In this document: one piece after another, positions 5,427-46,089 of the stretch | How positions within the stretch are numbered: position 1 is the stretch's first letter | How the letters are laid out: each line of letters opens with the position of its first letter | From: Elusimicrobiota bacterium | GTDB taxonomy: Bacteria > Elusimicrobiota > Elusimicrobia > F11 | NCBI GenBank assembly: GCA_044221725.1 | Contig: JBGAON010000003.1 | Coordinates: forward strand, 480,001 to 544,000 | DNA length: 64,000 bases | Direction: 5' to 3' | Notes under the pieces: model-generated | Database searches by the model: none | Told to the model about the DNA's origin: nothing | Seen by the model: the letters and a program-made list of their open reading frames with translations, nothing else | Translations under genes and position numbers: made by a program

Positions 5427-6917
5427 TTACTTCGTAGGTTCGGTTACCTCGGGCTGCGCTTCCGCGGGTTGCGTCGCTTCAGCGGGCGCGGCTTCTGGTT
5501 GCGTTCCTACACTGCTATTGTCTTGCTTGGCCGGTGTTTCGACCGGAGCTGAAATTGGTGTTGCGCTCATCGCTTTTTCAGCGGCCGCATCTTCTTTGGT
5601 TTTTGCGGTCAGTTCTGTTTCACGCGCGCCGTTCAGTTGAAGGCTCATATCGATCACTTCTTTGCGATCGTGATCTGGCAACGCGAGTTTCAGGTCGCCG
5701 TCGTTCTCCCATGTCTTTCCGTTCTTGTAATTGACTTGGAAGTGATAGGCATACATTCCGTCAACAACCGGTTCGCCGATCGCGTTTTTCGCGTCCCAAA
5801 CAATTTTCTCTGGCGGACGCAAGTCGCCTTCCAGGCGGCGCACTTCTTTGCCTTCGGCGTTGTTGATGGAGAGACTCCAACGAGCGACCGTTTGGGCTGG
5901 CACGTCGGTCTTAAACGCTACCTGGTTTTCAAAACCACTCAACGGATACACCGCACGACCCTCTTTCATTGGAGGTTCTATGCCCGTTTTATAAATGTTG
6001 TGCCATGCCCACGTGATGGACACTTTATTAAAGGCTCCAAGATCGGTATCGCTAAACGCATAGTCAATTCTGAACTTTTTGATATTCGCTCCTACACCAA
6101 GAGTGTAACTGCGATTCGCGTTGTAGCCAGTCCTTAACGAAAAAAATCTGTTCACGGCCCATTCGGCACCGGCGGCGTACTGGTTATCTTCATGACTTAC
6201 TCTGCTCATGTCGAAGGTCAGCGTGAGTCGATTTCGGAAAACGTCCGTGGCCGCTCCAAATCGGGTCACCGGGCGAAATACATCTTCTTCGGTTTGCAGT
6301 TTGATGCCCGGCTCGTTGAAATTCGCGAACATCGCGCCAACGCTCAAAAACCGAAACGGTTTGTACATGAAGCCCGCGTCCATCGCGAGCGTGTTGCCAG
6401 AAAGTCCACCCACCTTTTGTTGAATGAATTTCGCGTTCACGCCCGCGGAAATACGCTGCGTGAGCTTGTGCGCATACGAGGCCAGCACCGCATTGTTGCT
6501 CAAAGCCCCGTTCGAATCGGTTTCATTGTTGAAATTGTCGCGCAACGAGTATCCGTTCGAGAGCAACATTGCATCGGACAACGCCAATGCACCCCATTTA
6601 TCGCCCAGGGGATTGGCTGTCGCAAAATAGTTGTAGCTCGAATCCAAATAAAGGGGAGCGTGCATCAGCATCAGTTGGTGTTCGTCCATATACGCTAGAC
6701 CGGCGGGATTGAAGTAAGGGGCGGACGCGTCATCGGCCAAACCCGTGAAAGCTCCGCCCATCGCCAACGAACGAGCACCCGCACCAATGTTGAAAAGGTC
6801 GGAGGCTTGGCCATAGGTTGCGGCCGCGTTTAGAGAGCTTAGATGGCTGGCTAATGTCAGCACAATCAAGCTTGCTTTTAGCACTGTTTTTGGCGTTAGG
6901 GATTTCATTGCGTTCAC
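5427..6917 (-). CDS. PorV/PorQ (UPF0164)-family outer-membrane beta-barrel with C-terminal FlgD-Ig-like domain and Ala/Pro/Glu/Thr tail
   Basis: GAGARSLAMGGAFTGLADDASAPYFNPAGL N-terminal signature; amphipathic strands ending LRTGY...RIDYAF; then INNAEGKEVRRL...IVWDAKNAIGEPVVDGMY. Confidence 0.85.
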   Translation of the reverse strand: MNAMKSLTPKTVLKASLIVLTLASHLSSLNAAATYGQASDLFNIGAGARSLAMGGAFTGLADDASAPYFNPAGLAYMDEHQLMLMHAPLYLDSSYNYFATANPLGDKWGALALSDAMLLSNGYSLRDNFNNETDSNGALSNNAVLASYAHKLTQRISAGVNAKFIQQKVGGLSGNTLAMDAGFMYKPFRFLSVGAMFANFNEPGIKLQTEEDVFRPVTRFGAATDVFRNRLTLTFDMSRVSHEDNQYAAGAEWAVNRFFSLRTGYNANRSYTLGVGANIKKFRIDYAFSDTDLGAFNKVSITWAWHNIYKTGIEPPMKEGRAVYPLSGFENQVAFKTDVPAQTVARWSLSINNAEGKEVRRLEGDLRPPEKIVWDAKNAIGEPVVDGMYAYHFQVNYKNGKTWENDGDLKLALPDHDRKEVIDMSLQLNGARETELTAKTKEDAAAEKAMSATPISAPVETPAKQDNSSVGTQPEAAPAEATQPAEAQPEVTEPTK

Positions 6918-6920
6918 CTA

Positions 6921-9900
6921 TTATTTCGCCACCAAAATCTTCGTTTTCATCCTTTGACCGGTGGCACCGACTTTAACGACCACTACATATCCTCCATTTG
7001 CAACGGTCGTGCCGTCATCGTTAATACCGCGCCAAATCACACGGTTATCCGTGCGTGCTTCGCCACCTTGCTGACCAGCATCAATTGTCTGGTGCCAAAC
7101 TTTTTGACCAAACAAGTCATAGATGTCCACGTCCACGCTGGACGCCGATGCCAACGGATACTGAATCGTTATGAAGTTGTCCCCGTTCGAACTCTTCGGA
7201 TTAAACGGACTCGGGTATCCGACGAGCTTGTCCGATAGTTGATAGGTAAGAATGTCGAGTGTGTGCGGCCCACCGTTCGTAACCAACTCACTTACTTTGT
7301 TCACACAGGTCGGATCGACATTCGGGTAGCACACGTCGGAATACCAACGGAAATCGTATGTCTTTGTGGTCGAGAAGCCTGTTGCACCGCTGCTCGGGTT
7401 GTAGGTCTGATACGGGCCACCATCAAGGCTGTAATAGGTGGACACAACACCACCGGCGCTCACCTGCAAACCCGTGAGATCGATAAACCAAGGCGTGTTC
7501 ACGGGGATGCGATTTCCGCCCAAGGTCAACGCACGTCCCGGGCCACCGTTGATACCGAGAATGTTCACCTTAAATTCTTTCGCGAATCCACGATTCGGAC
7601 GATCCAAATCAAGAATGCGAACCGTGATGAGCCCGTTCGCGTTCGGCAAGGCGCTGAAGGTCACTTTCAGTTCGCCGTTCGCATCGGTAAGCGCCACGAG
7701 TTCGTTGCTTTCGCTGTTCATCCTCAACTGACCAGGAATGTCCGCCGATAGCGAAACCTTCTGGTTTGGAATGAGGTTTCCGAACGTGTCCTTGAAGGTC
7801 AGCGTCTCGTCGTCACTCGTTCCGGCCAAAAACTGAATCGGGTCTTTAACGTCAACGGTGACGAGTGCGCCCGGATTGATTTTGATGGCGGCTCCCGAAA
7901 AATAGTATTGCTGAGTCGGAACCGGTGGTGGGTCAAAAACCGTGGTGTTGTCGGCCAAGCGCAAATAGATCGTTTCAGCGCGATTGTATGTGGCGGACAC
8001 CGTGATTTTTCCGTTCACGACGTTCACGAGGTTTGGCACGAACGTGCCGCCCGCTGGAAGTCCCGACACCGACACAAACGCTTCGAGCGGAAGGCCCGTG
8101 CGATTCATGTTTTTGATTTCGGTTCCGGTGTCGGAATCGATCGCTTGGATCGTAAAGTTAAAAAGTTTGTTCACTTCGCTTTCCGCCGGAATATCGCGGA
8201 ACTGATAGGTGACCGCGCGCGGAATAAAACTGATCACATTGCTCACGCTTTCGTTGTCTCCGGTCAAATCTTTCACGCGCAAACGAATGCCTTCCGCAAT
8301 CGTGTACCGTTGATTTGTAATGGTCACGTTGCCCGCGACAAGGTTGGCTGAAGTGACATCCAATGTTCCGGTCGCTTTCGACCCGTCCACTTGCAGCGCT
8401 TCAATCGTGATGGGGCCAAAGGCCGGAACCACCGCTCCAGCACTGTTGCGCAACGAAATGGTCATGCTGAAGGCTTGGCCGGTAAACTGTGTGGCTGGCA
8501 CAGCGATATCGAAGAAAGTTCCGATGACAGGAACGTCGACTTTTTGCGATACGATCGTTCCGTTGTTGTCGTCGCGAACGATGACTGGAATCGTGCCTGC
8601 TTTATTGAATGTAATGGCGGTCGCAGTTTGACCGCCCGCCAGCGGAGCATCCTGCGGGACTGGCGCATTTAAGAATGCGAGCGCGTCCGTCGATTCAAAA
8701 TGGATTTTCCCACCGTTGAACGAATCGACGGTGTTCGCGAATTGGTCGGTTCCTTTCACTTGGAACACCACCGACAGCTTTCGGTCTTGCTGATTTGGCG
8801 TGCCAGTTTTTCCGGTCGGGTTTGCCGTTACCCCCGGCGTGTGAGTCTCGCCGGGCGCGATGATAATGAGTTTTTTGTAGGAATCCGGACTCAATGTGAT
8901 TGCGTTGCTGTTCCGAGGAACAATTGTCCATCCCGCCAAATTAAGATTCGATGCTTTCAGTACGATCGCTTCGGCTTTTGTGTAAGCGACGTCGATCGCG
9001 CAAATACCGTTCACGAGGCTCGCGCTTGAGACGGACAACGTTCCGTCTGCCGTCGGAAAAAGAAGTGATGTCGCTTCCAATCCGACCGTGTGGTTGTAAA
9101 GTGGGCTTTTGATCAGCGTGTCGGTGCTTCGGTCGCGCAGTTCGATGCGTGCACGGAATGTGCTCGGTGGGCCTACGATACCGGTGGCCGGGACAGAGAC
9201 GGTGTATTTTAGGCCGCTCGGTTGAACATCGATAAGGTTTGAGAACGCGATACGACCGAAGTTGTCACGGACTTTGATTTTAATTCCCTCTACATACTGG
9301 TAGTTCAGATCATTAATTACGACGACGCCGTTGTTCGTCACAAACTGGCGTTCGCTTCCATCGGGTGTGAACTGCCCTGTTGCTGGCGTACCGTCGGGCA
9401 ACACCGCGCTCAGGAAGACCGTTTGGCTGTATCCGTTCACCGGAATTCCATTCATCTGGAGCGAAATGGTAACAGCACCGAAATTTGAGCCCGCGACCGC
9501 TGTCGCCGGAGATTGAATGTTGTAGGTCGGGCCCGGAACGACGTGGATCGTCACTTGTCCGAACGTCTTCGTGAGATCGTTCTGGTCAAGAGCTTTAAGC
9601 GTGTAAAAGCCTTCGCTACCGAACAGGACGCTGCGCGTGTGGGTTCCGGTTTGGATCGTGCGAGGCGTGGGGCCGTTCTGCGTGTTATTGGGCGGTAAAT
9701 AAATTGTGTTTGTTGGTGACGAAACGAACAGAACATCACCGCCGGAAAATTGCACCGGGTTGTAATAGTTATCGACGGAGAGAATGGTCACGGTGTTTGC
9801 CACGCTTACCATTTGATCGGATGGCGGGAACCCCGCTTTCTTTCCGCCGGTCGCTTCGTTTCCCGGGTCCGGCAATTCGCCGGGCGCGATAATTTGCAAG

Positions 9901-12791
9901 CGCGAGTACGGTCCTGCGAGCCCTTGAATTGTGCTCGAGCTGGCCGTCACACCGCCCGCGGTAATATCCGTTGCGGTCAGTGTGTGAATCACTGCGGCTT
10001 TCAAAACAAGCGTTGTACTGAATTCGCCGAGCGCCAGATCTCCCTGCGCGGGGCTAAATTGCGCGTAGGAATCGCTCGCGAAGGCGACTTTCTGCGACGA
10101 GATTGTTGTTAATTGGTTGAAATACTGATCGCAAGCGACGGCGCGAACCGTGATGGCCGTTCCAACCGAGCGTGGAGCATTTGCGCCAGTTTTTCCCCAT
10201 GTTGTTCCGGGCGCCGCTACCTCGTCGGGACCCAGCAGCAACAATTTTTTATATCCGAGCGAATTCGGAAGAACCTTAAATGAATTGCTCGTGCTGGTTG
10301 TGCCGCCCCATTGCATGACGATTTTGACGGCGTTGTTCGCCGCGAAGCAGGTGATCGGACCATTGTAGATACCGCCGGACATCGATACGGTCGCTGGAGA
10401 CATCGTGCCCACGCCGGTTGTTGCCGACAAATTAATGGAATTGTTGAAATTGTTGATGATCTGATTGAACTGATCTTCTGCTTGAATCAAAACGTTGAAC
10501 GGAACGCCCGCCTCTTTGTCGGTATTGCTAGCGAGAGTGAAACGGAAGTGATCGACGTTTCCCGGACCTACCGGAATGGAAACACTCTGGAAAAGATTGG
10601 CGTTTCCGGCATCTTCGACGCGCACTGCTGAATTTTCGCCGAGCGACACGCTAACCGTGCGGTTGCTGGCGGCCATTGAAACGGATTGGCCCAACGTAAT
10701 TCCGCTGATGAAACTTGCAGCGTTGCTTGGCGTGATAGAGAAGCGCGTATTGGCGTACGGCGGATTCTGTAGCGGATTCCAGTATTGATCGGTGAGATAC
10801 GCGGTCATGTTGAACGCGATACCAGCGCCTTGCGTTGACGGCACTCCTTCTTTTCCATTTGCGAAAAATGAACCGGGGCGTAATGTTTCGCCGGGCGCTT
10901 CAAACGCGACACGATTGTAGGCGCCTGCGGAGACAGTTACCGTCGAGCTCAAGAAATCTTGCGGGGAAAAATTTGTGGTGGCGCGAAATTGCTTGTTGAG
11001 GCCCGCGGTACGCATGCTCACGCGGAAAGACGTGTCAAACGGCGGTGTCTGATACGTGAGTTCACCCCCGATCGGGAACGTGACGGTCGGATCGGCTGGG
11101 TGCGTCGCCGTGATATATGAGCTCGGAACCAAGCTCGACAACGTAATAGGAGTTCCCGTAATCGCAGGACCGGTAACCACATTCCAGTGCGCATCGGTCA
11201 AGCGAGCTTCGACAACCAACTGGTCGCCGGCCACGATGGTCGGCGGCGTGCCGCTGTTGCCGGGATACGTTCCAGGCGTAAACGTTTCTCCGACGAGCAC
11301 GCCGGGTTTCCCCAAAATTGTCATATGGACTTTGCTGAGGGCACCGGTCCGGACTTCGAATTGGTTGCTGTACGTTCCGACGCCAAATTGATCCTCAAAG
11401 TGCAAATCGACAACTTGGCTGCGTTTCGTAACGTTCAAATTAACGGTCGCGATACCGGCGACGAAGTTCACGACGTTGTCCGGAACGATTGTGGACGGGT
11501 TTGTATCCGCCCAAAGAACATTTTCTTGCACCGGCGGGCCGCTGATGCGCGCCGACAATTTTGCGCCCGGAAGAGCACCGTAGAGACTGGTGAGCAGAAT
11601 TCCACCGGACCGCGCTTCGATTTGAATCGTGATGACATCATCGGTTGTGAAGATCTGCCCCGGATTTGGTTGCACCGTAAACGCGTATGTGTTCGTCGCA
11701 CCGGGTGCCACCGGAACCACGGATTGATCCGCTTGGGCGGACTGTCCATTTGGGGTGGCTGTAATCGTACGCGTTCCGTTCGTGTTAAAAACAAAGCGGT
11801 TCGGTGCCGGTTGGCCACCGGCGATTTGTAGCGGCGGCGTTGTGAGACTTTGGGTGGGCGGTAAATAACTCGGCGCCACGGTGTCCGTCGGTTCCGACGA
11901 TGTGAATCCCATGCTGAGACTGACCGCTGAATAAATAGGATTGTAGAAAGCATCGACCGGCCAAATGGTGACAAGTCCTACCGGAACCGCGGCGACCTGA
12001 GTTCCAACCGTTCCACTTTTACCGATGCCGGGCGTCAGCGTTTCTCCTGGAAAAAGCATTGTGACTTTGGAATAAGCCCCCGGCGTTAAATTGAACAATG
12101 GACTCGTGTACGTTGGCGCGGGCACAGGGCCCGGCACGTTGAAACCGGTCAATCCGGAAATTGTCAGTGAAACTTTGTTGTTCATATCGCCGGCTTTTGT
12201 TGTGACGATGGCGGTGGCGATGCCATTTCCCGTCACGAAAGCGTTGCCGTCCACCGGTGTCAAAATACCCAAAGCGCTGCTGTCGACGATTTGAACCGGG
12301 TCCTCGAAATAAGAAACGAAGATTCCGTTCGCATCGAGCGGCGTGATCTGAATCGTGTAAGAAGTGTTTGCCGTAATCGACGGAATGGTGGGCGTGATCT
12401 GAAAGGTTGTCGGATACCGTTGCAGCGAGGCAGAAACCGTCGTGAAAATTGAGGGATCGTTTTTGTTTGTCACCGTCAGGTTTACATTGCCGGGAGCCTG
12501 ATGAAAGCGAATCGTGAAAATAAGTTTTCCGGTCGCATCCACTTTGTATTCGTTGGGCCCCACTTGCACACCGTTTCCGACGAAGATATCGCACGAAGCC
12601 AACGCGCCCGACGTTTGCAAAAATACGTTGTCGAAAAGCGCGGGTGAGGAAACGATTTGCAATTGATAGTCGCGCCCTTGAACGAGATTGAGCGGACGCC
12701 CATCGGTGCGCGTGATCGTGTAACCGGCGAACGCCGAGCTGACCGCCGACAGGAGGATTCCTCCAACAAAAGATAGAAGTTTGCGGTTCAT
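6921..12791 (-). CDS. Giant secreted Ig-repeat protein (1956 aa) with T9SS-like/FlgD C-terminal sorting domain
   Basis: Signal peptide; Thr/Val/Gly-rich beta repeats; C-terminus YPSPFNP...IYDLFGQKV...WRGINDDGTTVANGGY...KTKILVAK. Confidence 0.85.
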   Translation of the reverse strand: MNRKLLSFVGGILLSAVSSAFAGYTITRTDGRPLNLVQGRDYQLQIVSSPALFDNVFLQTSGALASCDIFVGNGVQVGPNEYKVDATGKLIFTIRFHQAPGNVNLTVTNKNDPSIFTTVSASLQRYPTTFQITPTIPSITANTSYTIQITPLDANGIFVSYFEDPVQIVDSSALGILTPVDGNAFVTGNGIATAIVTTKAGDMNNKVSLTISGLTGFNVPGPVPAPTYTSPLFNLTPGAYSKVTMLFPGETLTPGIGKSGTVGTQVAAVPVGLVTIWPVDAFYNPIYSAVSLSMGFTSSEPTDTVAPSYLPPTQSLTTPPLQIAGGQPAPNRFVFNTNGTRTITATPNGQSAQADQSVVPVAPGATNTYAFTVQPNPGQIFTTDDVITIQIEARSGGILLTSLYGALPGAKLSARISGPPVQENVLWADTNPSTIVPDNVVNFVAGIATVNLNVTKRSQVVDLHFEDQFGVGTYSNQFEVRTGALSKVHMTILGKPGVLVGETFTPGTYPGNSGTPPTIVAGDQLVVEARLTDAHWNVVTGPAITGTPITLSSLVPSSYITATHPADPTVTFPIGGELTYQTPPFDTSFRVSMRTAGLNKQFRATTNFSPQDFLSSTVTVSAGAYNRVAFEAPGETLRPGSFFANGKEGVPSTQGAGIAFNMTAYLTDQYWNPLQNPPYANTRFSITPSNAASFISGITLGQSVSMAASNRTVSVSLGENSAVRVEDAGNANLFQSVSIPVGPGNVDHFRFTLASNTDKEAGVPFNVLIQAEDQFNQIINNFNNSINLSATTGVGTMSPATVSMSGGIYNGPITCFAANNAVKIVMQWGGTTSTSNSFKVLPNSLGYKKLLLLGPDEVAAPGTTWGKTGANAPRSVGTAITVRAVACDQYFNQLTTISSQKVAFASDSYAQFSPAQGDLALGEFSTTLVLKAAVIHTLTATDITAGGVTASSSTIQGLAGPYSRLQIIAPGELPDPGNEATGGKKAGFPPSDQMVSVANTVTILSVDNYYNPVQFSGGDVLFVSSPTNTIYLPPNNTQNGPTPRTIQTGTHTRSVLFGSEGFYTLKALDQNDLTKTFGQVTIHVVPGPTYNIQSPATAVAGSNFGAVTISLQMNGIPVNGYSQTVFLSAVLPDGTPATGQFTPDGSERQFVTNNGVVVINDLNYQYVEGIKIKVRDNFGRIAFSNLIDVQPSGLKYTVSVPATGIVGPPSTFRARIELRDRSTDTLIKSPLYNHTVGLEATSLLFPTADGTLSVSSASLVNGICAIDVAYTKAEAIVLKASNLNLAGWTIVPRNSNAITLSPDSYKKLIIIAPGETHTPGVTANPTGKTGTPNQQDRKLSVVFQVKGTDQFANTVDSFNGGKIHFESTDALAFLNAPVPQDAPLAGGQTATAITFNKAGTIPVIVRDDNNGTIVSQKVDVPVIGTFFDIAVPATQFTGQAFSMTISLRNSAGAVVPAFGPITIEALQVDGSKATGTLDVTSANLVAGNVTITNQRYTIAEGIRLRVKDLTGDNESVSNVISFIPRAVTYQFRDIPAESEVNKLFNFTIQAIDSDTGTEIKNMNRTGLPLEAFVSVSGLPAGGTFVPNLVNVVNGKITVSATYNRAETIYLRLADNTTVFDPPPVPTQQYYFSGAAIKINPGALVTVDVKDPIQFLAGTSDDETLTFKDTFGNLIPNQKVSLSADIPGQLRMNSESNELVALTDANGELKVTFSALPNANGLITVRILDLDRPNRGFAKEFKVNILGINGGPGRALTLGGNRIPVNTPWFIDLTGLQVSAGGVVSTYYSLDGGPYQTYNPSSGATGFSTTKTYDFRWYSDVCYPNVDPTCVNKVSELVTNGGPHTLDILTYQLSDKLVGYPSPFNPKSSNGDNFITIQYPLASASSVDVDIYDLFGQKVWHQTIDAGQQGGEARTDNRVIWRGINDDGTTVANGGYVVVVKVGATGQRMKTKILVAK

Positions 12792-13156: not shown

Positions 13157-13283
13157 CGTTGCGTCCTCCTTGCACATTTCTCTCGATCGTTCGAGTAAAT
13201 CCCTGAAAACCTTAAATCACAATGTGTTTTTGGTCACAGGTTTGCCTTCCAAATGTCACCGAAACTTGTGACATAAGCTCGTG

Positions 13284-13299
13284 TGCAATGTTCATGCCA
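13284..13299 (-). promoter_or_regulatory. sigma54 (-24/-12) promoter
   Basis: Minus strand TGGCATG-AACA-TTGCA matches TGGCACG-N4-TTGC(A/T) with exact spacing, ~130 bp upstream of the cassette-1 operon. Confidence 0.7.
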
Positions 13300-13408
13300 C
13301 GAATTAGCGACAGGAATCGTGTTGGTTTAGCGCGGTGATTTAGGAACGAGGGGCGAGGTTTGCGGACGAATTTTGCCGGGATGCGCGCGATGTTAAGACG
13401 GAAAAATC

Positions 13409-27530: not shown

Positions 27531-27570
27531 CTATATTTATGCCGTCATTCCCGAATGACTTTATCGGGAA

Positions 27571-34400: not shown

Positions 34401-37400
34401 GATCGCGACAGACGTGGCCGTTCCGGTATTCCCGTCGTCACCAGTCGAGGCCCACGAAAGATTTACCGAGCCCTGAACTTGGCCACTTGCGGCCGTTAGG
34501 TTTTGAATAGAAGCGGGCGGCGTGAAGTCGCTGCCCGCGCCACCGGTTGCTCCGCTAACAAAGAAATCGACCACGGAGGGCGACGAGAGCAAACCCGCGT
34601 TGTCAACCGCTTGAACGGTGATCTGGTAATGACCATTGTTCCAATACGGCAAATTCGTGTACGACCAATAATTGTTCATGTAATTCGAATCCGTGAAGTG
34701 CGCCGCTGACATCCACGATTGAGAGGTCGGCGCCCAGTGCAGATTCAAATTTAAATCGGTGATATCCACCTGCACTTTTGAAACACTTTGATCGTCGTTG
34801 GCGCTGCCGCTGATTATCGTGAGATTGGACGGTGCGTACACTTGGGCGTTTACGAGGGAATAAATGGCAACCGTTGGCGGCGCATTCGATCCTCCGGCCG
34901 CTCCCGAAATGGTGATGTTGTGGGACGCTTGGGTTTCCTTGCTGGCAATATCTTTGGCTTTTGCAGTGACGATGTAGGTGCCCGCTGACCACATTGCCAT
35001 GGGAACCGTGACCGCCCAAGATGCGGCACCGTTCGCGCGAATAAAAGAATCGCCCGAACGCCACAGACCGCCGTCCCATGTGTAACCATCGCTGTTGCGC
35101 GTAATCCTTACGTCCACGTGATCGACACCGGTGTCGTCGGTGGCATTACCCGAAATTGACGTTAACTGGTCCGGCGAATAGCTCGCGTTGTTGGCCGGTT
35201 GATAAATCGAGACCGTTGGTGGCGTCGCATCGCCGGCGCCGGCGCCCGCACCATAGACGGTGAAATTTGTAATTTTTGTGGCCAGATTTCCGGATTGATC
35301 CGTTGCATTTACTTCCAGCGCGTAACCGCCGTTCGTGTAAATTGATGAGGGAACCGTGTAGCTGAAATCGATTCCGGTGCCATTGTTTGTGAATGTGGGG
35401 TACAACAAATACTTTGTGCTCGAAGCAAACGCGTTTCCGTTGTAGTACATCACCGTGCTTGTGTTTTTAAGAGCGAGCGTGATGTTGGAAATTCCAAACG
35501 CGTCGGCGGCTCGTCCGGATATCGTTGTGAATGAGTAGGGCGTTTGGTTTGCGTTGTCGGCCGGATTGTAAACGTAGATTTCTGGTGGCACGGTGTCGGC
35601 GGCTCCTCCACCGCTGATGCCCGAGACCGTGAATTGGTTCGAAACCGTTGTGAGATTGTTCGCGCCGTCGCGAATTTGCAGGAAGATGGTGAATGTGTCG
35701 TTCTTCCATGCGTTGATCGGGACCGCCCAGTTCCACGGAGAAACCGTGCCCACATTTTGTGTGACCGGCGTCGCGCTGGTCCAACTGTTTCCATTGAAGT
35801 AGTTGTTGCTGCTGTCACGCATCCACACCAAAACCTCGGAAACTTGATTGTTGTCGGCCGCCGTGCCGTTCAAATTTGCCAGCGTGGACGCCGAAGTGTA
35901 ACTCGCACCATTCGCGGGAACCAAGATCGCTCCCGTCGGAAGAATCGCGTCGGAAACGGGTCCGCCCGCGCTTTGCGCCGTGAACGTGACGGTTTGACTT
36001 TGGGTGTTGTTCGATGTGTCCTTGGCGCGGGCTTCCAACAGATACGCGCCGTTCGTTAAAGCGGCGGCTGGCAGCGAAAACGTCCAATACGCCATGCCGT
36101 TTGTCGGCAAATAGGTTTGCACGCCCGCATTAAATCCCACTCCGTTGTAGTAAAGGTTTGTGGAAAGCTGTTTAACACTCACTTCGACCATTTGAAGTCC
36201 CACCGCGTCGCCGGCATTTCCATTTATGGTTAGTATTGTTGGATCGGAAATGGAACCGTCCACGGGATTCGTGATGGTGACGTACGGCGGAACCGTGTCT
36301 CCGGCTTGTGCCGAATTAACCGTGAAATTCGAAATGGCGTACGAGATGTTGTTGTTCCCGTCGCGCGCTTTGGCTTTCAATCGGTATTGATGCCCGCTCA
36401 CCCACTTGTTCGACGGAATGCTCGTGAAATACCACGGGTTTGGGTTGGGCATGATGAGAAAGTTTTCGGTGAGATTGTTGAAGTCTGCCATGGCGGTATC
36501 CCAATATTTGTTGATGGTCACATCAAGAATGGAAGCGCTTGCCTCCACATAGCTGCGATCATCGTTGGCGTTTCCGCTCATAGTGACGAGCGAGGCCGGT
36601 GCCTGCGTGCTTCCGTCCGTTGGAAAATAAATGGAAATAGTTGGATAAACGAAGTCGGCGCCGCCACCGCTCGACACGGAAAAATTGGCGCTTTGAACAC
36701 CTTGGTTGTTCGAAAAATCGGCAGCGGTTAAGCTCATGGCATAATTTCCGGATTGAGAAAAAGCCGAGACGGGCATTGTGAACTGCCAAAATCCGGGTGT
36801 CACGTTGTTAAAAATCGGACCGGCAATCCAGGTGTTGCTGTTATTGTTCCAATCGAGGTTGTCCGCCAAGCGCGTGATACGAACTTTGGCCCAACTCACG
36901 CCCACGTTGTCGCTCACGTTTCCCGAGAGCAGTGTTAACTGACTATCGGTGTAGGTGCCCGCATTTGATGGATAATAAATCACGACGCTCGGGGGCGTGC
37001 TCTCAACGTCGGCGACCGGTGTTATTTGCGATGTTGCCGACGCTTGATTTCCACTGGCGTCGGTCGCCGTTACGGTAATCGTATAAAGACCACCGGTGCT
37101 CCAAGTGACCGCGCCTCCGTTGAAATTCCAGCTTGCGGTGCCGGTCGCCGGATTTGAAATTTGTTGCGCGCCGCTCCAATAATTACCGTTGGAATTCCAC
37201 CAGCCGGCTGGACCTTGAATCATGATCTGAACGTTTTGGACGCTGACATTGTCGGCCGCCGTTCCCGAAATTGTTGCCAAAGAGGAGATGGTTGGGTTGC
37301 TGCCATTTGTGGGCGCGTCGATTTGGACGGTTGGAGCCGTTGAATCACCGCTTCCCCCACCGATCGTAAAATTGATGTTCGGGGTGATCTGAGAATTGTT

Positions 37401-38864: not shown

Positions 38865-38873
38865 GAACGATTA

Positions 38874-38907
38874 AGAGTAAGGGCAGGCGATGACAAAGCC
38901 GTGACAA
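38874..38907 (-). promoter_or_regulatory. Pho-box-like direct repeat plus -10
   Basis: Minus strand TTGTCAC-GGCT-TTGTCAT (7-4-7), exactly 10 nt, then TACTCT, 9 nt before the ATG at 38864. Confidence 0.55.
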
Positions 38908-38986
38908 TAATAAGAAGAAGTAAGGATTTTTGTGTTTCTAAAGATAACGGATTGGGTTGATTTTTAGAGGTGATTTTTGGAGGAAA

Positions 38987-39907
38987 TTAGAACTGCATTT
39001 TCGCGGCGTATCGGAACGTATTTCCGAGATCTCCGAACGGAATCCACGCGAAGTCGAAGTCAAATTGCTTGTATCCGAGGCCGGCTCCGACAGACATTCC
39101 GTTCGCGCCACCCGGGTCCGTGTTCGCCGAGTTATACCCGATGCGCCCCGCGTATCGAATTTTTCCGAAAATGGCGTTCCGCCATTCTGTTCCAAGTCCA
39201 AACTTTATGCCAGTGTCTCGAATGTGGCGCACGTCGCCGAGCACCAACAGTCGATCTTCGAGGAGGCGCACCGTGGCGCCACCATCCAACGTTAATGGAA
39301 GCGGATCCGATTCTTCTTGGAATTTAACCTTCGTTCCAAAATGCCGAATCGCGAAACCGACGGAAACCGGATGCTCCTCGAAACGTTTCAGAATGCCCAC
39401 ATCACCGGCCCACGCACTGGCGGAGGTGCTGTCAATCTGTTCGCGGATCCAGCGCATGTTCCCGCCAATGCCGAAGGTTTCCCCAAGCGAGTGTCCATAC
39501 GAAATGGTGTAAGCCGCATCCTGATTTTCAAACGTACCGCTTGATGATTCGTCGACGTCGCGACGAGTTAACGCGTCGGTTTGTAACGTGGCGATGGAGA
39601 GACCCACCGTTCCGTGTTTCGTCGGTTGCACGTAGGCACCAAAATTGTAATTGAGCCCCTGAAAATATTGGGTGTGCATCGCCATAATTTCCGCTTTTTG
39701 CAAAAGTCCGAGACCGCCCGGGTTGTAATAGAGGGCATTGACGTCGTCAGCAGCGCCTACAAACGCGTCGCCGAGCGCGGTCGGCCGAGCGCCGGCACCG
39801 ATTTTTAGAAACTGAGCACCGGAAGTCCCCGCCTTTTTCCCGCTCGCATAAACATTGCTGATGGCGAACAGCAGCACCGGGAATATCAAAAACCTCGACC
39901 GGATCAC
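38987..39907 (-). CDS. PorV/PorQ-family outer-membrane beta-barrel (cassette 4)
   Basis: GTSGAQFLKIGAGARPTALGDAFVGAADDVNALYYNPGG; ends DFAWIPFGDLGNTFRYAAKMQF. GTG start at 39907 overlaps the upstream TGA. Confidence 0.88.
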   Translation of the reverse strand: MIRSRFLIFPVLLFAISNVYASGKKAGTSGAQFLKIGAGARPTALGDAFVGAADDVNALYYNPGGLGLLQKAEIMAMHTQYFQGLNYNFGAYVQPTKHGTVGLSIATLQTDALTRRDVDESSSGTFENQDAAYTISYGHSLGETFGIGGNMRWIREQIDSTSASAWAGDVGILKRFEEHPVSVGFAIRHFGTKVKFQEESDPLPLTLDGGATVRLLEDRLLVLGDVRHIRDTGIKFGLGTEWRNAIFGKIRYAGRIGYNSANTDPGGANGMSVGAGLGYKQFDFDFAWIPFGDLGNTFRYAAKMQF

Positions 39908-42900
39908 TTCAGCACCGCCATTTTGAAAAATTTCTCGTTCCCGCCATCGACCGTGAATCGGCCGATGTAGGTGCCGGACGCCACCGGTTCGTCGTGATCG
40001 TTTCGTCCGTCCCATTCGAGATAGTTGTGAGCTCCGCTTGTGAGAGGTGTGTGCAGCGTTCGGACCAATTCCCCCGCCACATCAAAAATTTGGATTTGCG
40101 CGGTTCCGGCGATTGTTGTTGGAATGCTCATCTTCAACATCGTGCCGTTGATCGACTGAGATGCGCTGGCCGTGCCCGGGTTTTGCAACGTGACCGTCTT
40201 TTGTTTCAGATTAAAAGGATTCGGGAAATTAATGATGGCAAGTTCTCCCGTGTATCCGCCGCCGGTAATAATCGATGCGCTTGAACCGAGAATCGTGAAC
40301 ACCGACGCGTGCGCGATATCGGCGCACACGCGCGTGTTGTCGGTGTCGACCGCTTTGTTCGTGCTCTCGAGCACGTACTCGTTCGTGGCGCTGTTGTAGT
40401 AGTAGATGTTTAAGACCGAAGGGTCCGGCACGCTCGAATCGTAGGTAAGACAAATTCGTGCGCTCTTGCCTTCCGGAAAGAAATGGCTTACGCCCGCGGG
40501 CAAGAACACGTCATAGAACGAACTGAGTGGTGATACATCGAGTGTTTTGAGGCGTGACATGGCCGCTGCCATTTCGGACGGATAGGACTTCATACCAAGT
40601 CTTCCGGCCACGTCCAGCGCACCAAGCCGAGAGCCGCGCAACGCCGACGATGACAATGCGCTTTGTGTCGCGGCCGCTTTGAGAACCACATCGGCCGTGG
40701 CCGTGTCATCGTCTCCAAGAAATCCTGCCGACGCCGTGAAGCTCGAACCGTCGTTCGCCTGAGAAAGGTCGACCTTCCCGCCGTTCGCGTTCGTCAATGT
40801 CACTGTGTTTTGGCGCGCAATCCCAACGAAGAAAGTGAAGGGACCGTTAATGGTGTGATTGGTACCCGTTTTATCGTCTACAGAAACGAACGTACCATGA
40901 ACCGTAATGACAAAAGAAGAATCGCCTGCGCCCGGCGTGTACGTGGCTTGCGCTTGTCTCCGATCCGATGAAATTGTCGGAGCCGAAAGTGTTCCTGCGC
41001 CAGTCGTGAGCGTGAACAGTTCGTTGTCATCTTTGACGCCGTTGCTGTCGAGATCGGTGTCTGAATTCCTCAATGTGTCATCAAATTTATAGATGATCGT
41101 AAACGTGCCATCGTTATTCCTTATTGATTGTGCGAGACCGCCCGGCGTCGGTGTTTGGAACGTGAGATCCAGTGACGTGTCGCTCTTCAACGTTACATTC
41201 GTCGCGAGACTAATAATCGTGTTCGAATCATCGAAACCGACAATCGTGTAGGCTTTGTTCGGCTGCATACCAGCAATGGCATAGGAAAGGAGATTTCCGG
41301 AGGCATCGTTCACCATTTTTGCAATGGAAATCTCGTTAAAGTTGTCTCGTACGGCCAAAACGCTCTCGAGCTCTTTTTGGCTGACCGAATCTCCGTTCGA
41401 TTTCGTAATTTTTCCTGACAGCGTGTACCCGGCCGGAAGGGTGAGCGTTCCGAGATCCACGGCCTGGTTTGGTGCGACGGTGACGTTCCGTTTCGCCACG
41501 CTGCCGTAACCGCGTGAAAGAATGAACAGGTCATAAACGCCGGCCGCGAGACCCGTTACATTCATTTGACCGTCGCCCGAAACCGCGTCAAACAAATCGC
41601 CGAGAGGGTTGTCTTGCGGTTTGTCGGGAAGGTGATTTAGGATTACGTAGGCCCCCGGAAGATTGTCGTCGCCTTCCTCGCCAAACGGAACCAACATTTG
41701 GCCGCCATCAGAAGTCCCCACGTGCGCGGTAATTTTGCTTGTAGCGGGTTGAAGAGTGAAATCCACGTTCGTGATGTTCTGAGTGTCGATGGGACCGCGG
41801 ATAACTTGTCCGTAGCGGCCCAGTCCTGTGTCGCCGATGTAGCGTGTATCAAACGGATCGGGGCGTCTCGCGGCCGTGAACAAATAGTAGCGCTCGTCGG
41901 CTGAATCGATTCCGTGAAACGCATACTTGCCGCTGTCATTCGTGAACGTTTCGAGATTGTTGTCATCGTTGTGACCGTTGCGGCGCGCGCCCTGCGCCGT
42001 GATACGAACGTTTGGAACCGGGTTCCCAGATGAGTCCCGAACGGTGCCCGTAATTTGAATTCCTTCGTCCAGTGAAATAAAGCCCAGATCCTTCGTTTCT
42101 CCTTCGGAAACAGTGATTCCGCTTTTTGTAATTGGCACGAACTGCTTTTTGCCGGCCGCGATATCGGCCTCGGTTGGCGGCGCAAACGCGCGAACCAATA
42201 TATCGTAGGTGCCCGGGTTAACCGCCACGTTGAAATAACCGTTGCTATCAATGAGCGGCATCTGCGATGAGCCATAGCCGCCCGGAATTTGGGGGTTGCT
42301 GCGCGCTTCCACATGCAGATCGGTTGTGAAATACTGCGAATAGTTGGACGCCGATATTACAACGCCGGATTTTTTAATTTGGAATCGTCCTTTGATGAGC
42401 CCGGAATTAACCAGTTGGATTTCCTTGTTTGTGAGATCGGAGGCCAGGACGGTAACGGATTGATCTTTTGAAGAATATTTTTGCGGATAACTATCGCGAA
42501 CCGTGAGAACATAATTCCCGGGGCGAACTTTGTCGAGCGAGTAACCAACCGAGTTGCCGGTCAAATTGACCGTGTTTTGCGTCAGGAGATTTCCGTTGCT
42601 GTCCATGAGCATCACGTTCAATTGGCGTCCCGTCTCGGTCTGGCCGCCGCCCAATCGAACGGTGCCGCTCACTTTGTAACCGTCGGAGACCGTCATGTCT
42701 TTGCCTATGAGATTTTGATTTGAAATGTACGCGATGATTTGTGTTTCGCTGACCTCGTTGTGGTCCGATAAATCGCCATCAATTTCACCGTTCGTGGTAA
42801 GGCGATAGGAGCCGGGAGCAAGTCCACTGATGGTGTAATCCCCATTCGCATCATAGAAACCAACGAACGTTTCTTTTGGATCGTAAAAGATTGAATTTGC

Positions 42901-45900
42901 GTTTCCGTTGGAACGGGGATTGAAGTTTCGTCCACGCAGTTGAGTGGCAACAACGCGATTTGCATTTAGGGTCCCTTGCCCGGATGGCGTTTGAGTTTGG
43001 GTCGGCGTGGAGCTATTAACGATATAGGAGATTGTGTACGGATTGCTGGCGGTGGATGTCACGCGTCCGGAAATCGAATAGGTTTGGCCGGAAAGGTCCA
43101 GATCACGTTTCGTCGTTTGACCGTTCGTGATTTGCACGCTCTGGCTCACCACGAGTTTCGTGAACGGATAACGTGCCCGCACCGTGTAGAAGTCCGTTCC
43201 TAGTCCGCTGATCTCATAGTTACCGCTGCCGTCCGGTGTGGCGGTCGGACGCTGACCAAAATTATTGAATCCGAGCGCTTCAATTTCAACGGTGCCGTAA
43301 TCACTCCTTCCGGACGGCAATGTGATTTTTCCCGAAATCTTTCCAGAGAATTGCTCCAGCATGAGATTGACCGATCCGCTTCCCCCGGAAACGATGATCG
43401 AGGGCCCGCTTGGCGGATTTAATCCGAAGCCGGGTTCGTAAATGAACATGTTGTAAGTGCCGTCTTCGAGACCTTTTATTTGGAAGCCCCCATTTGTTTG
43501 CGTTGCGTTCGTGGGAAGTTGAATCTGTGTGTAATTTCCGAAACCACTTGCAGGCGAAAAAATGTTGATTGGGACACTAAACAAACCGTCGGAAGTCCCG
43601 TCGAGCGAATCGAGAATCGTTGAATCGCCTTTCACCGTGAGTGTCCCTGTTACTGTTCCACCTTGGCTCAATGTGGGAAAGTCAGCGGCTGGGAATGTCA
43701 CGTCGCTTCCGGTCACGGTCACGTTAATCTTCTTGCGAATAAAACCTTGTGCCCATGTCGAAAGCACGTAGGTTCCATTGGCCAATCCGAAAATGCGATA
43801 GGTCCCGTTCACGTCGCCCGGAGGGATATAAACACCGCCATAAATTCTTTTTGAGAAATCGTTGTCATCGGGATTCAAGTCGGAGTTCGCATCCATAGCG
43901 GCTTCGACGGACACCCAAAGCCCTTGGGCATTGGAGCCGGTCGGCAACGTGATTTTTCCTTCGACGGTGGGTTGGCGAACCAACGTGCGTGTCATGTGCG
44001 TTACGCCGGTCCCAGGGAGCGTGATATTAAACGTATCCAGCGCGTGGCTGGGTACTTCCAAGGTGACTTTGTAGGCGACACTCGGTTCAAGGTAAAGATC
44101 CGTGAACGAGGTCGGAGTGACATTGTAATCATCGCCAGCGTCGGAGACTGTTTTTCCCGAGCGGAAACGAACGGTTCCGTACGCTTGCTTCGAGTAATCC
44201 GAATTGTTGGCGCGTGCGTTACCGGTGATATCCGGAAGAGCCGCATTCGCTGGACGCGTTACCGATAAGCGCAATATAGCGGCTTGCGTCAGCGTGATGG
44301 TCGGCACGGTCGCAATGACGCCGTCTGTTACGGTAACGGTTGTTTCCTTATATATGTATCCGGATTTGAAAAACCGAAGAGTGTAGTTGCCGGCGCCAAT
44401 TCCGTAAATCGTGTAGTTGCCCGATGGAAGCGTGCGTGTGTAACGGTTCGTTGGTCCGTACATCTGTACGTCGACGGCATCGGGATTAACGGCTGAAATT
44501 GTTCCTTGCACGCCCGCCGATTGGAGCGTGACCGCACACGTTTCGTCTTTTATGGAAGAGCCGACCAAGATGCGAACCGCGTACGTGGCCGGTTGGGCGA
44601 TGCTGGGCGGCGATCCTGGCAGCGGGTCCGCAAATCCGTCCCAGCTGGTTCGAATGCTGGTTCCGTATCCGTACACCGTTTTTGCGATCGTAACGAAATT
44701 GTCGCTTGAGAAGAAAACGCGCCACGACAGATCTTGCGGCAGTGTGAAATTGATATAGGCGCGTTCGTTTTTGCCCGGATCAAATGTGACGCTTTTTTGT
44801 GTGGCGAGATAGGTTCCCTTGTCGACGGAGCTGTTCGTAATTCCGCCGTTGATGGGGTGGACGTTCGCCATATAGTTCGAATTTCCGAACACCGATTGCA
44901 GTTGAACGTATTTCTGTTCGTTGGCGGCCACATTGTTCGTGCGGTAGTGGTACGTCTTCCGGGTTGCCGGGGGCGACAGGCTGTCCGACAGGCTAATCGC
45001 GCTTGGCGAAAACGCTGCGTTCGTGGAAAGTTCGGCGGTTGTATCCGACGTTTGTCCTCCACCGATATATCTGACAGCGCTAAGGTTGATTGAAATCGGG
45101 TTAGCGGCGGCCACGTTATTTCCGCAGCCATCTTTCACCGCAATATCGAACGCGGCGTCGGTGTTTAGCGGTGTCACAATCTCAAAGGGTTCGAAATTCA
45201 AAAATGTGGGTTGGCCTGAGTTAAGAACCATGCTTCCATTGAAAGATGACAGCGCGACATCGGTACCGCAGGTTTGATAACGCGATGAGACGCGGAATGT
45301 GGTTGTTGTCGGCGTTTGGCACGTTTGTGCCGCGTAAAAGATTTTTACGACGTCACCGGAATTTAATTGACCGCTAATGACCGTCAAAATTATTTTTTGT
45401 CCGTTAAGCGAGAGTTGCAAAGTGGCGGTGCCGCTCGTTGTGGCCCACGAGACAAGACCAGGGAAACTGTACCCCGATCCGGTGGCCGTGCTCGGCGCGG
45501 CATAAAAGTCTGGAATCTGCATGACAATGCGGCCGCCCAACTGGATTCCGGCCAAAGCAACGGTGTAGGTCATCGTCGTTTGCACAAGCTGCCCAATGTG
45601 CATCGTAAGCGGCGCCAATACGGCCGAGCCCGCTCCGTCGTTTGCGTTCAGTCCGCACGGCGGCCGCGCCTGCACGGTAGTTCCATTCGATAGAGTGGAA
45701 CGGTTGCCGCTAGAATCCTCGCATTTGATTGAAAATGAGTAGTCCGCCCCCGGTTGTAGATTGGTCAGGTTGAAGGTTGCTTCGGTGGATCCTGGGGTGG
45801 AAGGATTGGGCGCAGCCAAATTCAGCGGAGGTTCTTCGATGCGCTGAGCGGCGGAAAATTCTGAATCCGTGGATATCGGTGTGCTGTTCGTGCGGTACTT

Positions 45901-46089
45901 GATGATGTAGCGCGACGTGGCGGTTGCGCTACTGCTTAAGTCGGGCACCGCCCAGTTAAGGGCGACCGATCCTTCGGTGGTTCCAGGGCTCGCAGTTAAA
46001 TTGTTGATAGCGTTGGGTGTGGCGTTTGCCATTCCCACGCAAAAAAAAAGACTCAGTGTTAAACCGGTTGAACGTACGTTAGTAATCAT
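39904..46089 (-). CDS. Giant surface protein (~2060 aa), paralog of the C-terminal two-thirds of the 3457-aa protein
   Basis: Signal peptide, FN3 (NNLTASPG...VALNW), carboxypeptidase-regulatory-like repeats (GTVRDSSGNPVPNVRI), C-terminus INFPNPF...EWDGRND...VASGTY...KMAVLK. ATG 46089 preferred (track start 46101). Confidence 0.88.
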   Translation of the reverse strand: MITNVRSTGLTLSLFFCVGMANATPNAINNLTASPGTTEGSVALNWAVPDLSSSATATSRYIIKYRTNSTPISTDSEFSAAQRIEEPPLNLAAPNPSTPGSTEATFNLTNLQPGADYSFSIKCEDSSGNRSTLSNGTTVQARPPCGLNANDGAGSAVLAPLTMHIGQLVQTTMTYTVALAGIQLGGRIVMQIPDFYAAPSTATGSGYSFPGLVSWATTSGTATLQLSLNGQKIILTVISGQLNSGDVVKIFYAAQTCQTPTTTTFRVSSRYQTCGTDVALSSFNGSMVLNSGQPTFLNFEPFEIVTPLNTDAAFDIAVKDGCGNNVAAANPISINLSAVRYIGGGQTSDTTAELSTNAAFSPSAISLSDSLSPPATRKTYHYRTNNVAANEQKYVQLQSVFGNSNYMANVHPINGGITNSSVDKGTYLATQKSVTFDPGKNERAYINFTLPQDLSWRVFFSSDNFVTIAKTVYGYGTSIRTSWDGFADPLPGSPPSIAQPATYAVRILVGSSIKDETCAVTLQSAGVQGTISAVNPDAVDVQMYGPTNRYTRTLPSGNYTIYGIGAGNYTLRFFKSGYIYKETTVTVTDGVIATVPTITLTQAAILRLSVTRPANAALPDITGNARANNSDYSKQAYGTVRFRSGKTVSDAGDDYNVTPTSFTDLYLEPSVAYKVTLEVPSHALDTFNITLPGTGVTHMTRTLVRQPTVEGKITLPTGSNAQGLWVSVEAAMDANSDLNPDDNDFSKRIYGGVYIPPGDVNGTYRIFGLANGTYVLSTWAQGFIRKKINVTVTGSDVTFPAADFPTLSQGGTVTGTLTVKGDSTILDSLDGTSDGLFSVPINIFSPASGFGNYTQIQLPTNATQTNGGFQIKGLEDGTYNMFIYEPGFGLNPPSGPSIIVSGGSGSVNLMLEQFSGKISGKITLPSGRSDYGTVEIEALGFNNFGQRPTATPDGSGNYEISGLGTDFYTVRARYPFTKLVVSQSVQITNGQTTKRDLDLSGQTYSISGRVTSTASNPYTISYIVNSSTPTQTQTPSGQGTLNANRVVATQLRGRNFNPRSNGNANSIFYDPKETFVGFYDANGDYTISGLAPGSYRLTTNGEIDGDLSDHNEVSETQIIAYISNQNLIGKDMTVSDGYKVSGTVRLGGGQTETGRQLNVMLMDSNGNLLTQNTVNLTGNSVGYSLDKVRPGNYVLTVRDSYPQKYSSKDQSVTVLASDLTNKEIQLVNSGLIKGRFQIKKSGVVISASNYSQYFTTDLHVEARSNPQIPGGYGSSQMPLIDSNGYFNVAVNPGTYDILVRAFAPPTEADIAAGKKQFVPITKSGITVSEGETKDLGFISLDEGIQITGTVRDSSGNPVPNVRITAQGARRNGHNDDNNLETFTNDSGKYAFHGIDSADERYYLFTAARRPDPFDTRYIGDTGLGRYGQVIRGPIDTQNITNVDFTLQPATSKITAHVGTSDGGQMLVPFGEEGDDNLPGAYVILNHLPDKPQDNPLGDLFDAVSGDGQMNVTGLAAGVYDLFILSRGYGSVAKRNVTVAPNQAVDLGTLTLPAGYTLSGKITKSNGDSVSQKELESVLAVRDNFNEISIAKMVNDASGNLLSYAIAGMQPNKAYTIVGFDDSNTIISLATNVTLKSDTSLDLTFQTPTPGGLAQSIRNNDGTFTIIYKFDDTLRNSDTDLDSNGVKDDNELFTLTTGAGTLSAPTISSDRRQAQATYTPGAGDSSFVITVHGTFVSVDDKTGTNHTINGPFTFFVGIARQNTVTLTNANGGKVDLSQANDGSSFTASAGFLGDDDTATADVVLKAAATQSALSSSALRGSRLGALDVAGRLGMKSYPSEMAAAMSRLKTLDVSPLSSFYDVFLPAGVSHFFPEGKSARICLTYDSSVPDPSVLNIYYYNSATNEYVLESTNKAVDTDNTRVCADIAHASVFTILGSSASIITGGGYTGELAIINFPNPFNLKQKTVTLQNPGTASASQSINGTMLKMSIPTTIAGTAQIQIFDVAGELVRTLHTPLTSGAHNYLEWDGRNDHDEPVASGTYIGRFTVDGGNEKFFKMAVLK

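Follow-up and report, generated by a model that had tools for sequence, protein, structure and literature searches.

The secretion system of type IX (T9SS) is described, in three papers (PMC11205867, PMC12618676, PMC10994853), as a system of the Bacteroidota and the FCB (Fibrobacteres, Chlorobi and Bacteroidetes) superphylum. According to PMC10994853, the C-terminal domains (CTDs) of the substrates bind the extracellular loops of the barrel PorV in the solved translocon, and the energy of the PorLM motor frees carrier and cargo from SprA. PMC12618676 states that the type A CTDs of the Bacteroidota all use one PorV, and that type B cargo of Flavobacterium johnsoniae needs a cognate, adjacently encoded PorP/SprF barrel for its secretion and final placement; in PMC10947112, PorZ on PorQ and PorU on PorV retain uncleaved CTDs and are held at the surface by the barrel. 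Here we analyse a stretch of 64,000 nucleotides (the window, to which positions refer unless a contig is given) from an Elusimicrobiota bacterium (assembly GCA_044221725.1, contig JBGAON010000003.1, positions 480,001 to 544,000 of the forward strand), in which four large genes for CTD-bearing cargo are each followed by the gene of a barrel of the PorV/PorQ family. We argue that these barrels are probably dedicated carriers and anchors in a T9SS-like pathway that operates without a sortase.

Like PorZ-PorQ and PorU-PorV of Porphyromonas gingivalis, each pair would consist of a surface protein that keeps its CTD on a PorV/PorQ-family barrel, a disposition that is predicted here. P. gingivalis has two pairs of this kind, which are machinery that attaches other cargo to anionic lipopolysaccharide (A-LPS); here there are about 20, and the held proteins, giant immunoglobulin (Ig)-repeat proteins and a subtilase, are themselves the cargo. 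Unlike in P. gingivalis, no PorU catalytic domain was found, and the window barrels remain under the cut-offs of both the PorV and the PorQ equivalog models, sharing only the family model with them. In giving every cargo a single barrel next to it, the system follows the logic of type B SprB and SprF, whereas the barrels here are of the PorV/PorQ family and the tails are FlgD_ig-like or type-A-like. With the SprA-PorV-substrate translocon of F. johnsoniae (6H3I, 8GL6) the system shares the nearest barrel fold, the predicted seat of the CTD on the loops and the presence of a SprA homologue; it differs in that the SprA-like protein has 1799 aa and scores under its cut-off, and in that the searches revealed neither a PorL/M motor nor a PorK/N ring nor PorU. 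The FadL/TodX importers likewise form a barrel of 14 strands whose lumen holds an N-terminal segment, and differ in having no known CTD partner. Our literature searches, which had subscription-only papers outside their scope, found no paper on T9SS parts or PorV pairs in Elusimicrobiota.

Cargo and barrel genes of the window

An earlier note, made by inspection of the sequence, had recognized in the window four large secreted proteins, each with a PorV-type barrel encoded 3' of it. The four cargo genes (c1 to c4, Table 1) are real minus-strand open reading frames (ORFs) with signal-peptide-like N-termini, and their last ~100 aa form a domain that can be aligned across all four. As the criterion for the barrels (b1 to b4) we took the NCBIfam model of the PorV/PorQ family, NF033709, with its curated cut-off of 90 bits: all four pass it, at 125.2, 140.4, 161.6 and 164.8 bits for b1, b2, b3 and b4, respectively. 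The two genes of a pair are closely spaced. At the c3/b3 junction the start codon of the barrel lies on the stop codon of the cargo in a 4-base ATGA overlap, and the c4 stop is overlapped by b4 in the same manner (GTGA, 4 bases); the spacing is 3 nt between c1 and b1 and 107 nt between c2 and b2.

None of the barrels reaches the cut-off of a more specific model of the family. Scores range from 37.8 to 74.3 bits for the PorV equivalog (NF033710, cut-off 250), from 52.3 to 116.2 bits for the PorQ equivalog (NF033711, cut-off 220), the highest value being that of b2, and from 51.9 to 76.1 bits for the PorV2 model (NF052325, cut-off 325). The PorP/SprF models match only b1, TIGR03519 with 24.1 bits (below its cut-off of 90.55) and PF11751 with 26.6 bits (above its cut-off of 22.3). 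The importer model Toluene_X (PF03349, cut-off 29.7) gives 16.2 bits for b1 and no match for b2 to b4; one paralogue elsewhere in the genome scores 29.4 bits. The structural model of b3 (pLDDT, the predicted local distance difference test, 86.5) has 14 strands, and in a Foldseek search of the PDB its best match is PorV of F. johnsoniae (8gl6_F, E = 1.7e-13, template modelling (TM) score 0.75; also 6h3i_F), with FadL lower in the list (E = 2e-9, TM score 0.58). Several paralogous barrels of the genome carry C-terminal extensions, presumably periplasmic: five have TPR, one has OmpA together with a FecR-like domain, and another has LysM.

The C-terminal domain of the cargo proteins

The four tails can be aligned along the pattern (F/Y)PNP(F) ... 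I(Y/F)D..G..V ... (A)SG.Y ... K. With public models, which the note had suggested applying to tails and barrels alike, the tails are borderline. FlgD_ig (PF13860, cut-off 27) gives 43.4 bits for c3, 28.8 for c4 and 23.7 for c1, and leaves c2 unmatched. Only c2 comes near the type A tail models, and reaches neither of them (26.5 bits for PF18962, Por_Secre_tail, cut-off 27; 20.5 bits for TIGR04183, cut-off 23); its tail also matches the model of the PorZ C-terminus, at 24.8 bits, and three other CTD ORFs of the genome score 24.1-26.0 bits on PF18962. The type B tail model CHU_C (PF13585) scores 18.8-21.8 bits in the four cargo proteins, under its cut-off of 27.

We also made our own hidden Markov model (HMM) of the CTD, starting from the four tails of the window and iterating over the ORFs of the source genome. 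It finds 30 domains in 29 ORFs, and 27 of these lie within 15 aa of a C-terminus. As an example, the domain of c4 scores 88.4 bits and ends 1 aa short of the C-terminus, that of c1 scores 67.7 bits and ends 3 aa short, and that of c2 scores 45.5 bits; a CTD-like domain internal to b1 scores 58.6 bits (25.2 bits with Pfam FlgD_ig). Compared with solved chains, the CTD profile matches FlgD first (E = 7e-6), then PorZ (5m11, E = 5e-4) and PorU (6za2, E = 1e-3): beyond FlgD, the only matches among solved chains are thus at the retained C-termini of PorZ and PorU. The CTD of c3 was also aligned with those of 20 homologous cassettes, consisting of c4 and 19 in loci of relatives. The identity of the c3 tail is 42-63% to most orthologous cassettes of other genera and at most 44% to its own paralogues other than c4; the paralogue lineages are therefore old and stably paired.

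Predicted complex of b3 and the c3 tail

For residues 24-307 of b3 and the C-terminal 113 aa of c3, a complex was predicted with a score of 0.94 in three runs, while the best of three controls scored 0.00; the same mark is reached by 116 of 157 solved complexes and by 2 of 215 mismatched pairs, counts that are rough because our own alignments were used. At least 99% of the contacts agree between runs, and the pLDDT of the partner is at least 93. In the model, the contacts of the c3 tail are its conserved motifs FPNPF, IYDIAGELV and VASGIY and the C-terminal KMAVLK; those of b3 are the N-terminal GTSAAQFLKI segment and seven stretches, which, from the order of the 14 strands and the periplasmic location of both termini, would be the seven extracellular loops. 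The CTD of c3 is thus predicted to cap the outer mouth of the barrel, touching all seven loops and the conserved GTSAAQFLKI, on the same face of PorV that is occupied by the substrates in the solved translocon (PMC10994853).

Pairing in the genome and in relatives

The source genome (2.82 Mb in 5 contigs, 93.9% complete) matches NF033709 in 25 places, 20 of them at or over the cut-off. A CTD ORF is the immediate neighbour of 18 of these 20 strong barrels (upstream of 14, downstream of 4), and a 19th lies about 1 kb behind a CTD protein of 8766 aa, so that 19 of 20 stand beside a CTD gene and a single one (C5:131375-132700) does not. Conversely, 22 of the 27 CTD ORFs are beside a barrel. This adjacency is far above chance, as the genome has about 2,400 called genes and 27 CTD ORFs, which lead to an expectation of about 2% per barrel. 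The cargo is not solely adhesin-like: one of the CTD proteins is a subtilase.

Loss of the pairing in related genomes had been named in the note as a result that would speak against its proposal. We scanned one genome per species with the four window barrels and fetched 79 loci, from relatives and from other phyla. The nearest are those of metagenome-assembled genomes (MAGs) of Elusimicrobiota, with a best identity of 66%, and of 54-55% to a record of Candidatus Obscuribacterium magneticum; weaker relatives of the barrels occur in Zixibacteria, Latescibacterota, KSB1, Calditrichota, Ignavibacteria, Gemmatimonadota and Bacteroidota. The pairing is kept: 62 of 83 barrel ORFs in these loci follow an ORF ending in a CTD, 2 have a CTD ORF downstream only, and 19 have neither. 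Several of the 19 are at the edge of their locus, and in five loci (L024, L026, L030, L036, L042) a homologue of a second barrel of the window, p405 (see below), is directly upstream. In a second sample, of b2-like barrels in other Elusimicrobiota genomes, a CTD ORF is found upstream in 12 of 14 loci. One cargo with one barrel, the arrangement that had been proposed from the four cassettes, is therefore the rule both in this genome and in its relatives.

A match to the PorV family is present in 119 of 121 Elusimicrobiota genomes, with at least 16 matches in genomes of 2-4 Mb (up to 61 candidates) and few in those of 1-1.7 Mb. Over 20 pairs of the source genome, a set from which the orphan barrel was omitted along with the weaker barrel-like ORFs, the identities between barrels are correlated with those between CTDs (Mantel r = 0.47, a value reached in 1 of 10,000 permutations), and in 7 of the 20 barrel and tail agree in their nearest paralogue.

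A short SprA-like protein, and searches for motor, ring and sortase

The note had placed the cassettes outside the canonical T9SS gene set. This remains correct in that no complete T9SS was found; it has to be amended in that a short SprA-like protein is encoded elsewhere in the genome and in 115 of 121 genomes of the phylum. The protein has 1799 aa (contig 4, 344418-349817), is single-copy, and matches the SprA model TIGR04189 over three colinear stretches; its nearest clusters in the ESM Atlas are of proteins of about 1800 aa with SprA_N in 20-86% of their members. It is about 500 aa shorter than canonical forms, which in five FCB genomes have 2157-2693 aa and score 589-1845 bits on TIGR04189. 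The six genomes without the SprA-like protein have 6, 2, 1, 0, 0 and 1 PorV-family matches, so that four of the six have no more than a single, weak one. In its locus (contig 4: 339761-350517; L008, L090) the gene is divergent from lptF/lptG and lies before a comF-like gene, and this order with lptF and the comF-like gene is kept in all three relatives examined. Just past lptG are a weak PorV-like/TraF_2 barrel of 475 aa and a small TPR protein.

A complete canonical T9SS elsewhere in the genome, which the note had singled out as a competing explanation of the cargo, was sought genome-wide, and neither a PorU catalytic domain nor PorL, PorM or PorN was found. For the PorU sortase there are nine NF033707 matches in the genome, all within model positions 986-1094, which is its CTD, and no catalytic domain of the C25 type. 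For GldL (PorL) the best TIGR03513 match in the genome has E = 0.03, nothing credible; for GldM (PorM) TIGR03517 has no match in the genome, nor has GldN (PorN). A match to PF12081 (GldM_1st) of 20.6 bits was dismissed, as it sits in an OmpA-family protein. We also built profiles of our own for gldKLMN, from five complete Bacteroidota operons in genomes where TIGR03517 gave a match. Among 14,174 ORFs of the genome the L, M and N profiles give nothing at E <= 10, although very diverged homologues may escape them, and the K profile finds only one protein, of the FGE-sulfatase family, at 117.7 bits. The gene of this PorK-like protein has no L/M/N-like neighbours and is unmatched in the two closest relatives searched. 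The GldK-like matches in the five FCB genomes, which score at most 90 bits and lie at unrelated sugar-metabolism loci, were discarded.

In eleven loci of FCB phyla (L055, L062, L073, L074, L077-L079, L081, L082, L084, L088), from MAGs of Ignavibacteria, Calditrichia, KSB1 and Bacteroidota, a conserved protein of about 1200 aa with a CTD is encoded ahead of the PorV-family barrel. These proteins were considered as PorU and rejected: no catalytic match was obtained in L038, L055, L073, L081 and L088, and no Pfam family in L038, L055, L073 and L081.

The operon of c3 and c4

The picture of four separate cassettes holds in so far as all four are present, and needs correction in that c3 and c4 sit in a larger conserved operon with a secreted FecR-domain protein and a second barrel, p405 (Table 1). 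The FecR gene comes first, and p405, c4, b4, c3 and b3 follow in succession without sizeable gaps. The ORF of c4 is 39904-46101 (2065 aa), with its first ATG at 46089. The repeats of c3 and c4, which are Ig-like, fn3 and CarboxypepD_reg, fit proteins of the adhesin or surface-layer type, as judged from their family matches.

Table 1. Coordinates of the cargo and barrel genes and of the two further genes of the c4-b4-c3-b3 operon.
Feature	Position	Strand	Description
Cargo c1	6921..12791	-	1956 aa; signal peptide; weak Big_1 and CBM_4_9 matches; CTD
Barrel b1	5427..6917	-	496 aa; PorV/PorQ-family; extra FlgD_ig-like domain at residues ~321-404; Pro/Glu/Ala/Thr-rich tail
Cargo c2	17301..19148	-	615 aa; signal peptide; N-terminal part without known family; CTD
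Barrel b2	16087..17193	-	368 aa; PorV/PorQ-family; ~40-aa tail past the barrel
Cargo c3	28491..38864	-	3457 aa; signal peptide; repeats matching Pfam Big_7, Big_13, CarboxypepD_reg, fn3 and DUF4625; CTD at 28494-28832
Barrel b3	27571..28494	-	307 aa; PorV/PorQ-family, 14 strands; ORF 27571-28599, likely start 28494
Cargo c4	39904..46089	-	~2061 aa; signal peptide; fn3 and CarboxypepD_reg repeats; CTD at 39907-40245
Barrel b4	38987..39907	-	306 aa from GTG start; PorV/PorQ-family; ORF 38987-40015, likely start 39907
p405 beta-barrel	46079..47296	-	405 aa; without known family; overlaps c4 start by 11 nt
FecR-domain secreted protein	47313..48956	-	547 aa; Pfam FecR 72.2 bits; first gene of the operon

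The AlphaFold model of p405 (pLDDT 87.7) is an all-beta barrel, with only generic porin and AlgE matches in Foldseek (TM score at most 0.47); the protein has no Pfam family, and its profile matched nothing among PDB sequences. A relationship to SlipAM, suggested by a link in the ESM Atlas (19% of the members of one cluster), could not be confirmed. In the loci of relatives there are 16 ORFs homologous to p405, directly upstream of a cargo or a barrel gene, and 12 homologous to the FecR protein, adjoining the p405 homologues. Both genes are single-copy in the genome and are thus not general machinery.

Contigs from four metatranscriptome libraries of one study cover much of 27401-47400, with an identity to the window of at least 99% in 111 of 121 pieces and of 95-99% in the other 10. 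Single contigs span both junctions, that of c3/b3 at 28274-28533 and that of c4/b4 at 39637-40156 and 39660-40021, which agrees with co-transcription of cargo and barrel; the contigs carry no strand or level information. A scan of 27000-46999 for promoters and terminators was uninformative, because the sites were no commoner than in shuffled sequence.

Proposed mechanism and alternative explanations

The reading that we favour, and consider probable, is that the barrels are dedicated PorV-type carriers and anchors in a sortase-less T9SS-like pathway. Judging from their N-termini, the cargo proteins would be exported by Sec; by analogy with the T9SS of the Bacteroidota, they would then pass, with the CTD leading, through the SprA-like pore and so across the outer membrane. 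The CTD would dock, as predicted for c3, onto the outer loops of the adjacently encoded barrel, which would carry the cargo out and then stay as its surface anchor. Since no PorU was found, the CTD would remain uncut and the barrel would remain the anchor, as for PorZ on PorQ and PorU on PorV in Porphyromonas. Barrels with periplasmic OmpA, LysM or TPR tails may link the anchors with the cell wall or with partners in the periplasm; peptidoglycan-binding tails fit fixed anchors better than free shuttles. A more specific version, which is possible and on balance doubtful, is that a short SprA pore passes each cargo to its own permanent PorV-type anchor, without a sortase and without detectable PorLMKN, that PorU-PorV and PorZ-PorQ are relics of a state of one cargo and one barrel, and that release is powered by something other than PorLM, one candidate being the FliG-like and MotA-like genes described in the next section. 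To call the system ancestral to the T9SS is speculation.

A system of this kind throughout a phylum, with a SprA homologue, dozens of PorV-type barrels and CTD cargo but neither motor, ring nor sortase detectable, would extend the range in which the machinery is known and provide a natural minimal version of the T9SS in which to ask which parts are essential. The approximately 20 natural pairs in one genome would make the choice of CTDs by PorV-type barrels testable, and the display of proteins of up to 13,689 aa at the surface of Elusimicrobiota could be accounted for.

A number of points weigh against this reading. The translocon role of the SprA-like protein is inferred: its TIGR04189 score is 108.5 bits (E = 1.6e-31), short of the cut-off of 200, and phmmer finds no match to it among PDB sequences. 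Negative results for the motor genes are weak, because the public models also fail in FCB genomes that have SprA: TIGR03517 and PF12081 are blank in five FCB genomes with canonical SprA, and TIGR03517 matched in only 6 of 26 Bacteroidota. In addition, the best NCBIfam match of the PorK-like FGE-sulfatase protein is GldK (140.8 bits, cut-off 350), and the genome is 93.9% complete. The complex prediction covers one cognate pair, b3 with the c3 CTD, and, since a PorV-CTD complex has been solved (8GL6), its high score may reflect likeness to that complex and not binding by this copy. Conservation among paralogues hardly distinguishes the interface from the remaining residues (means of 0.38 and 0.41, respectively, in the barrel; 0.45 and 0.36 in the CTD, p = 0.07): the interface mixes residues conserved across the family with variable ones, and there is no clear signal for either generic or specific recognition. 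The Mantel correlation can arise from duplication of whole cassettes alone. Five CTD ORFs, one of them of 13,689 aa, have no adjoining barrel. Finally, the RNA contigs come from a single study and may include DNA carry-over.

Among other explanations, the one deserving most attention is that the barrels are only transient carriers, as in Flavobacterium PorV is for type A cargo and SprF/PorP for type B cargo: the CTD would be drawn from the SprA-like pore and then let go, the cargo being set free or attached by another route. This is the role assigned to PorV and the PorP/SprF shuttles in PMC10994853 and PMC12618676; the predicted interface and that of the solved translocon lie on the same face, and one cargo, the subtilase, could work as a free enzyme. 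We nevertheless consider it unlikely, since the searches found no PorU-like peptidase that could take off the CTD, the OmpA, LysM or TPR tails of several paralogous barrels suit fixed anchors better than mobile shuttles, and the CTDs resemble most closely those of PorU and PorZ, two proteins that stay bound. Less likely still is that the T9SS is an ordinary one, its motor, ring and sortase genes being too diverged to be detected or left unassembled, and the PorV paralogues only a lineage-specific expansion. The narrowness of the public GldK/L/M/N models, which failed in five FCB genomes with canonical SprA, the PorK-like best match of one FGE-sulfatase gene and the incomplete assembly all leave room for it; on the other side stand the blank results of our own L, M and N profiles, the isolation of the PorK-like gene, which lacks L/M/N neighbours and is unmatched in the two closest relatives, the restriction of the PorU matches to the CTD, and a SprA-like protein about 500 aa shorter than the canonical 2157-2693 aa.

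It is also conceivable that the export of each cargo is the work of the neighbouring barrel itself (or, in the case of c3 and c4, of the FecR protein with p405), in the style of two-partner secretion or Slam, and that the SprA-like protein does something else. The strict one-to-one pairing with translational coupling, the failure to find a known T9SS motor, the conservation of the FecR and p405 pair upstream of cassettes of the c3/c4 type and the distant, unconfirmed p405-SlipAM lead would fit such a scheme. It seems very improbable to us, because folded Ig-repeat proteins would not fit through a plugged PorV-like barrel of 14 strands, p405, as a single-copy gene, cannot serve the other approximately 18 cassettes, its fold match is merely generic, and SprA-like and PorV-family genes tend to vanish together. 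That the barrels are FadL-type importers of hydrophobic compounds, adjoining surface-protein genes by coincidence, is scarcely credible. The earlier note had raised this identity as a challenge to its own proposal, and the fold is broadly FadL-like, with weak Toluene_X and UPF0164 Pfam matches; PorV, however, ranks above FadL in the fold search, NF033709 is passed while Toluene_X stays under its cut-off, the adjacency is conserved across phyla, and a CTD interface is confidently predicted.

Neighbouring genes and other loci of the genome

Immediately 3' of b1, a minus-strand cluster at 1292-5386, with gaps of 40 and 26 nt, encodes a TPR protein of 993 aa (TPR_6, YfiO-like), an ExbB/TolQ-family protein and an ExbD/TolR protein; it may be a Tol-Pal/CpoB-like cluster or an energiser tied to the first cassette. 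At the other end of this cassette, a 129-aa ORF with a signal-peptide-like N-terminus (12788-13177, minus strand) overlaps the start of c1 by 4 nt. A protein of 682 aa with GH57 and Glucodextran_C, an SLH-like binding module, is encoded 40 nt past b3 (25482-27530, minus strand). Farther along the window, at 55178-59042 (minus strand) and 58966-60225 (plus strand), a 696-aa protein with CarboxypepD_reg repeats, a protein with a prepilin-type N-methylation signature and a 427-aa ORF without known family adjoin a transposase of the Mutator family (IS256-like).

FliG-like and MotA-family genes, candidates for a rotor and a stator on the basis of their family assignments, occur near cassettes or barrel-like ORFs in two places. 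On contig 3 (233852-267000) a CTD cargo of 7987 aa and its barrel-TPR come before a FliG_M/FliG_C/TPR protein of 630 aa, and a MotA-family gene lies 5 kb beyond this; on contig 5 (182557-185841) a second pair of FliG_C and MotA comes after a weak barrel-like ORF.

The genome also contains giant ORFs of 13,689 aa (contig 3: 407319-448388), 8021 aa (contig 3: 209236-233301) and 8766 aa (contig 5: 215703-242003), the first of which ends in a CTD with no barrel gene adjoining. At 384661-392621 of contig 3, a weak barrel-like ORF, two small ORFs, a CTD protein of 424 aa and an ORF of 1325 aa are grouped together.

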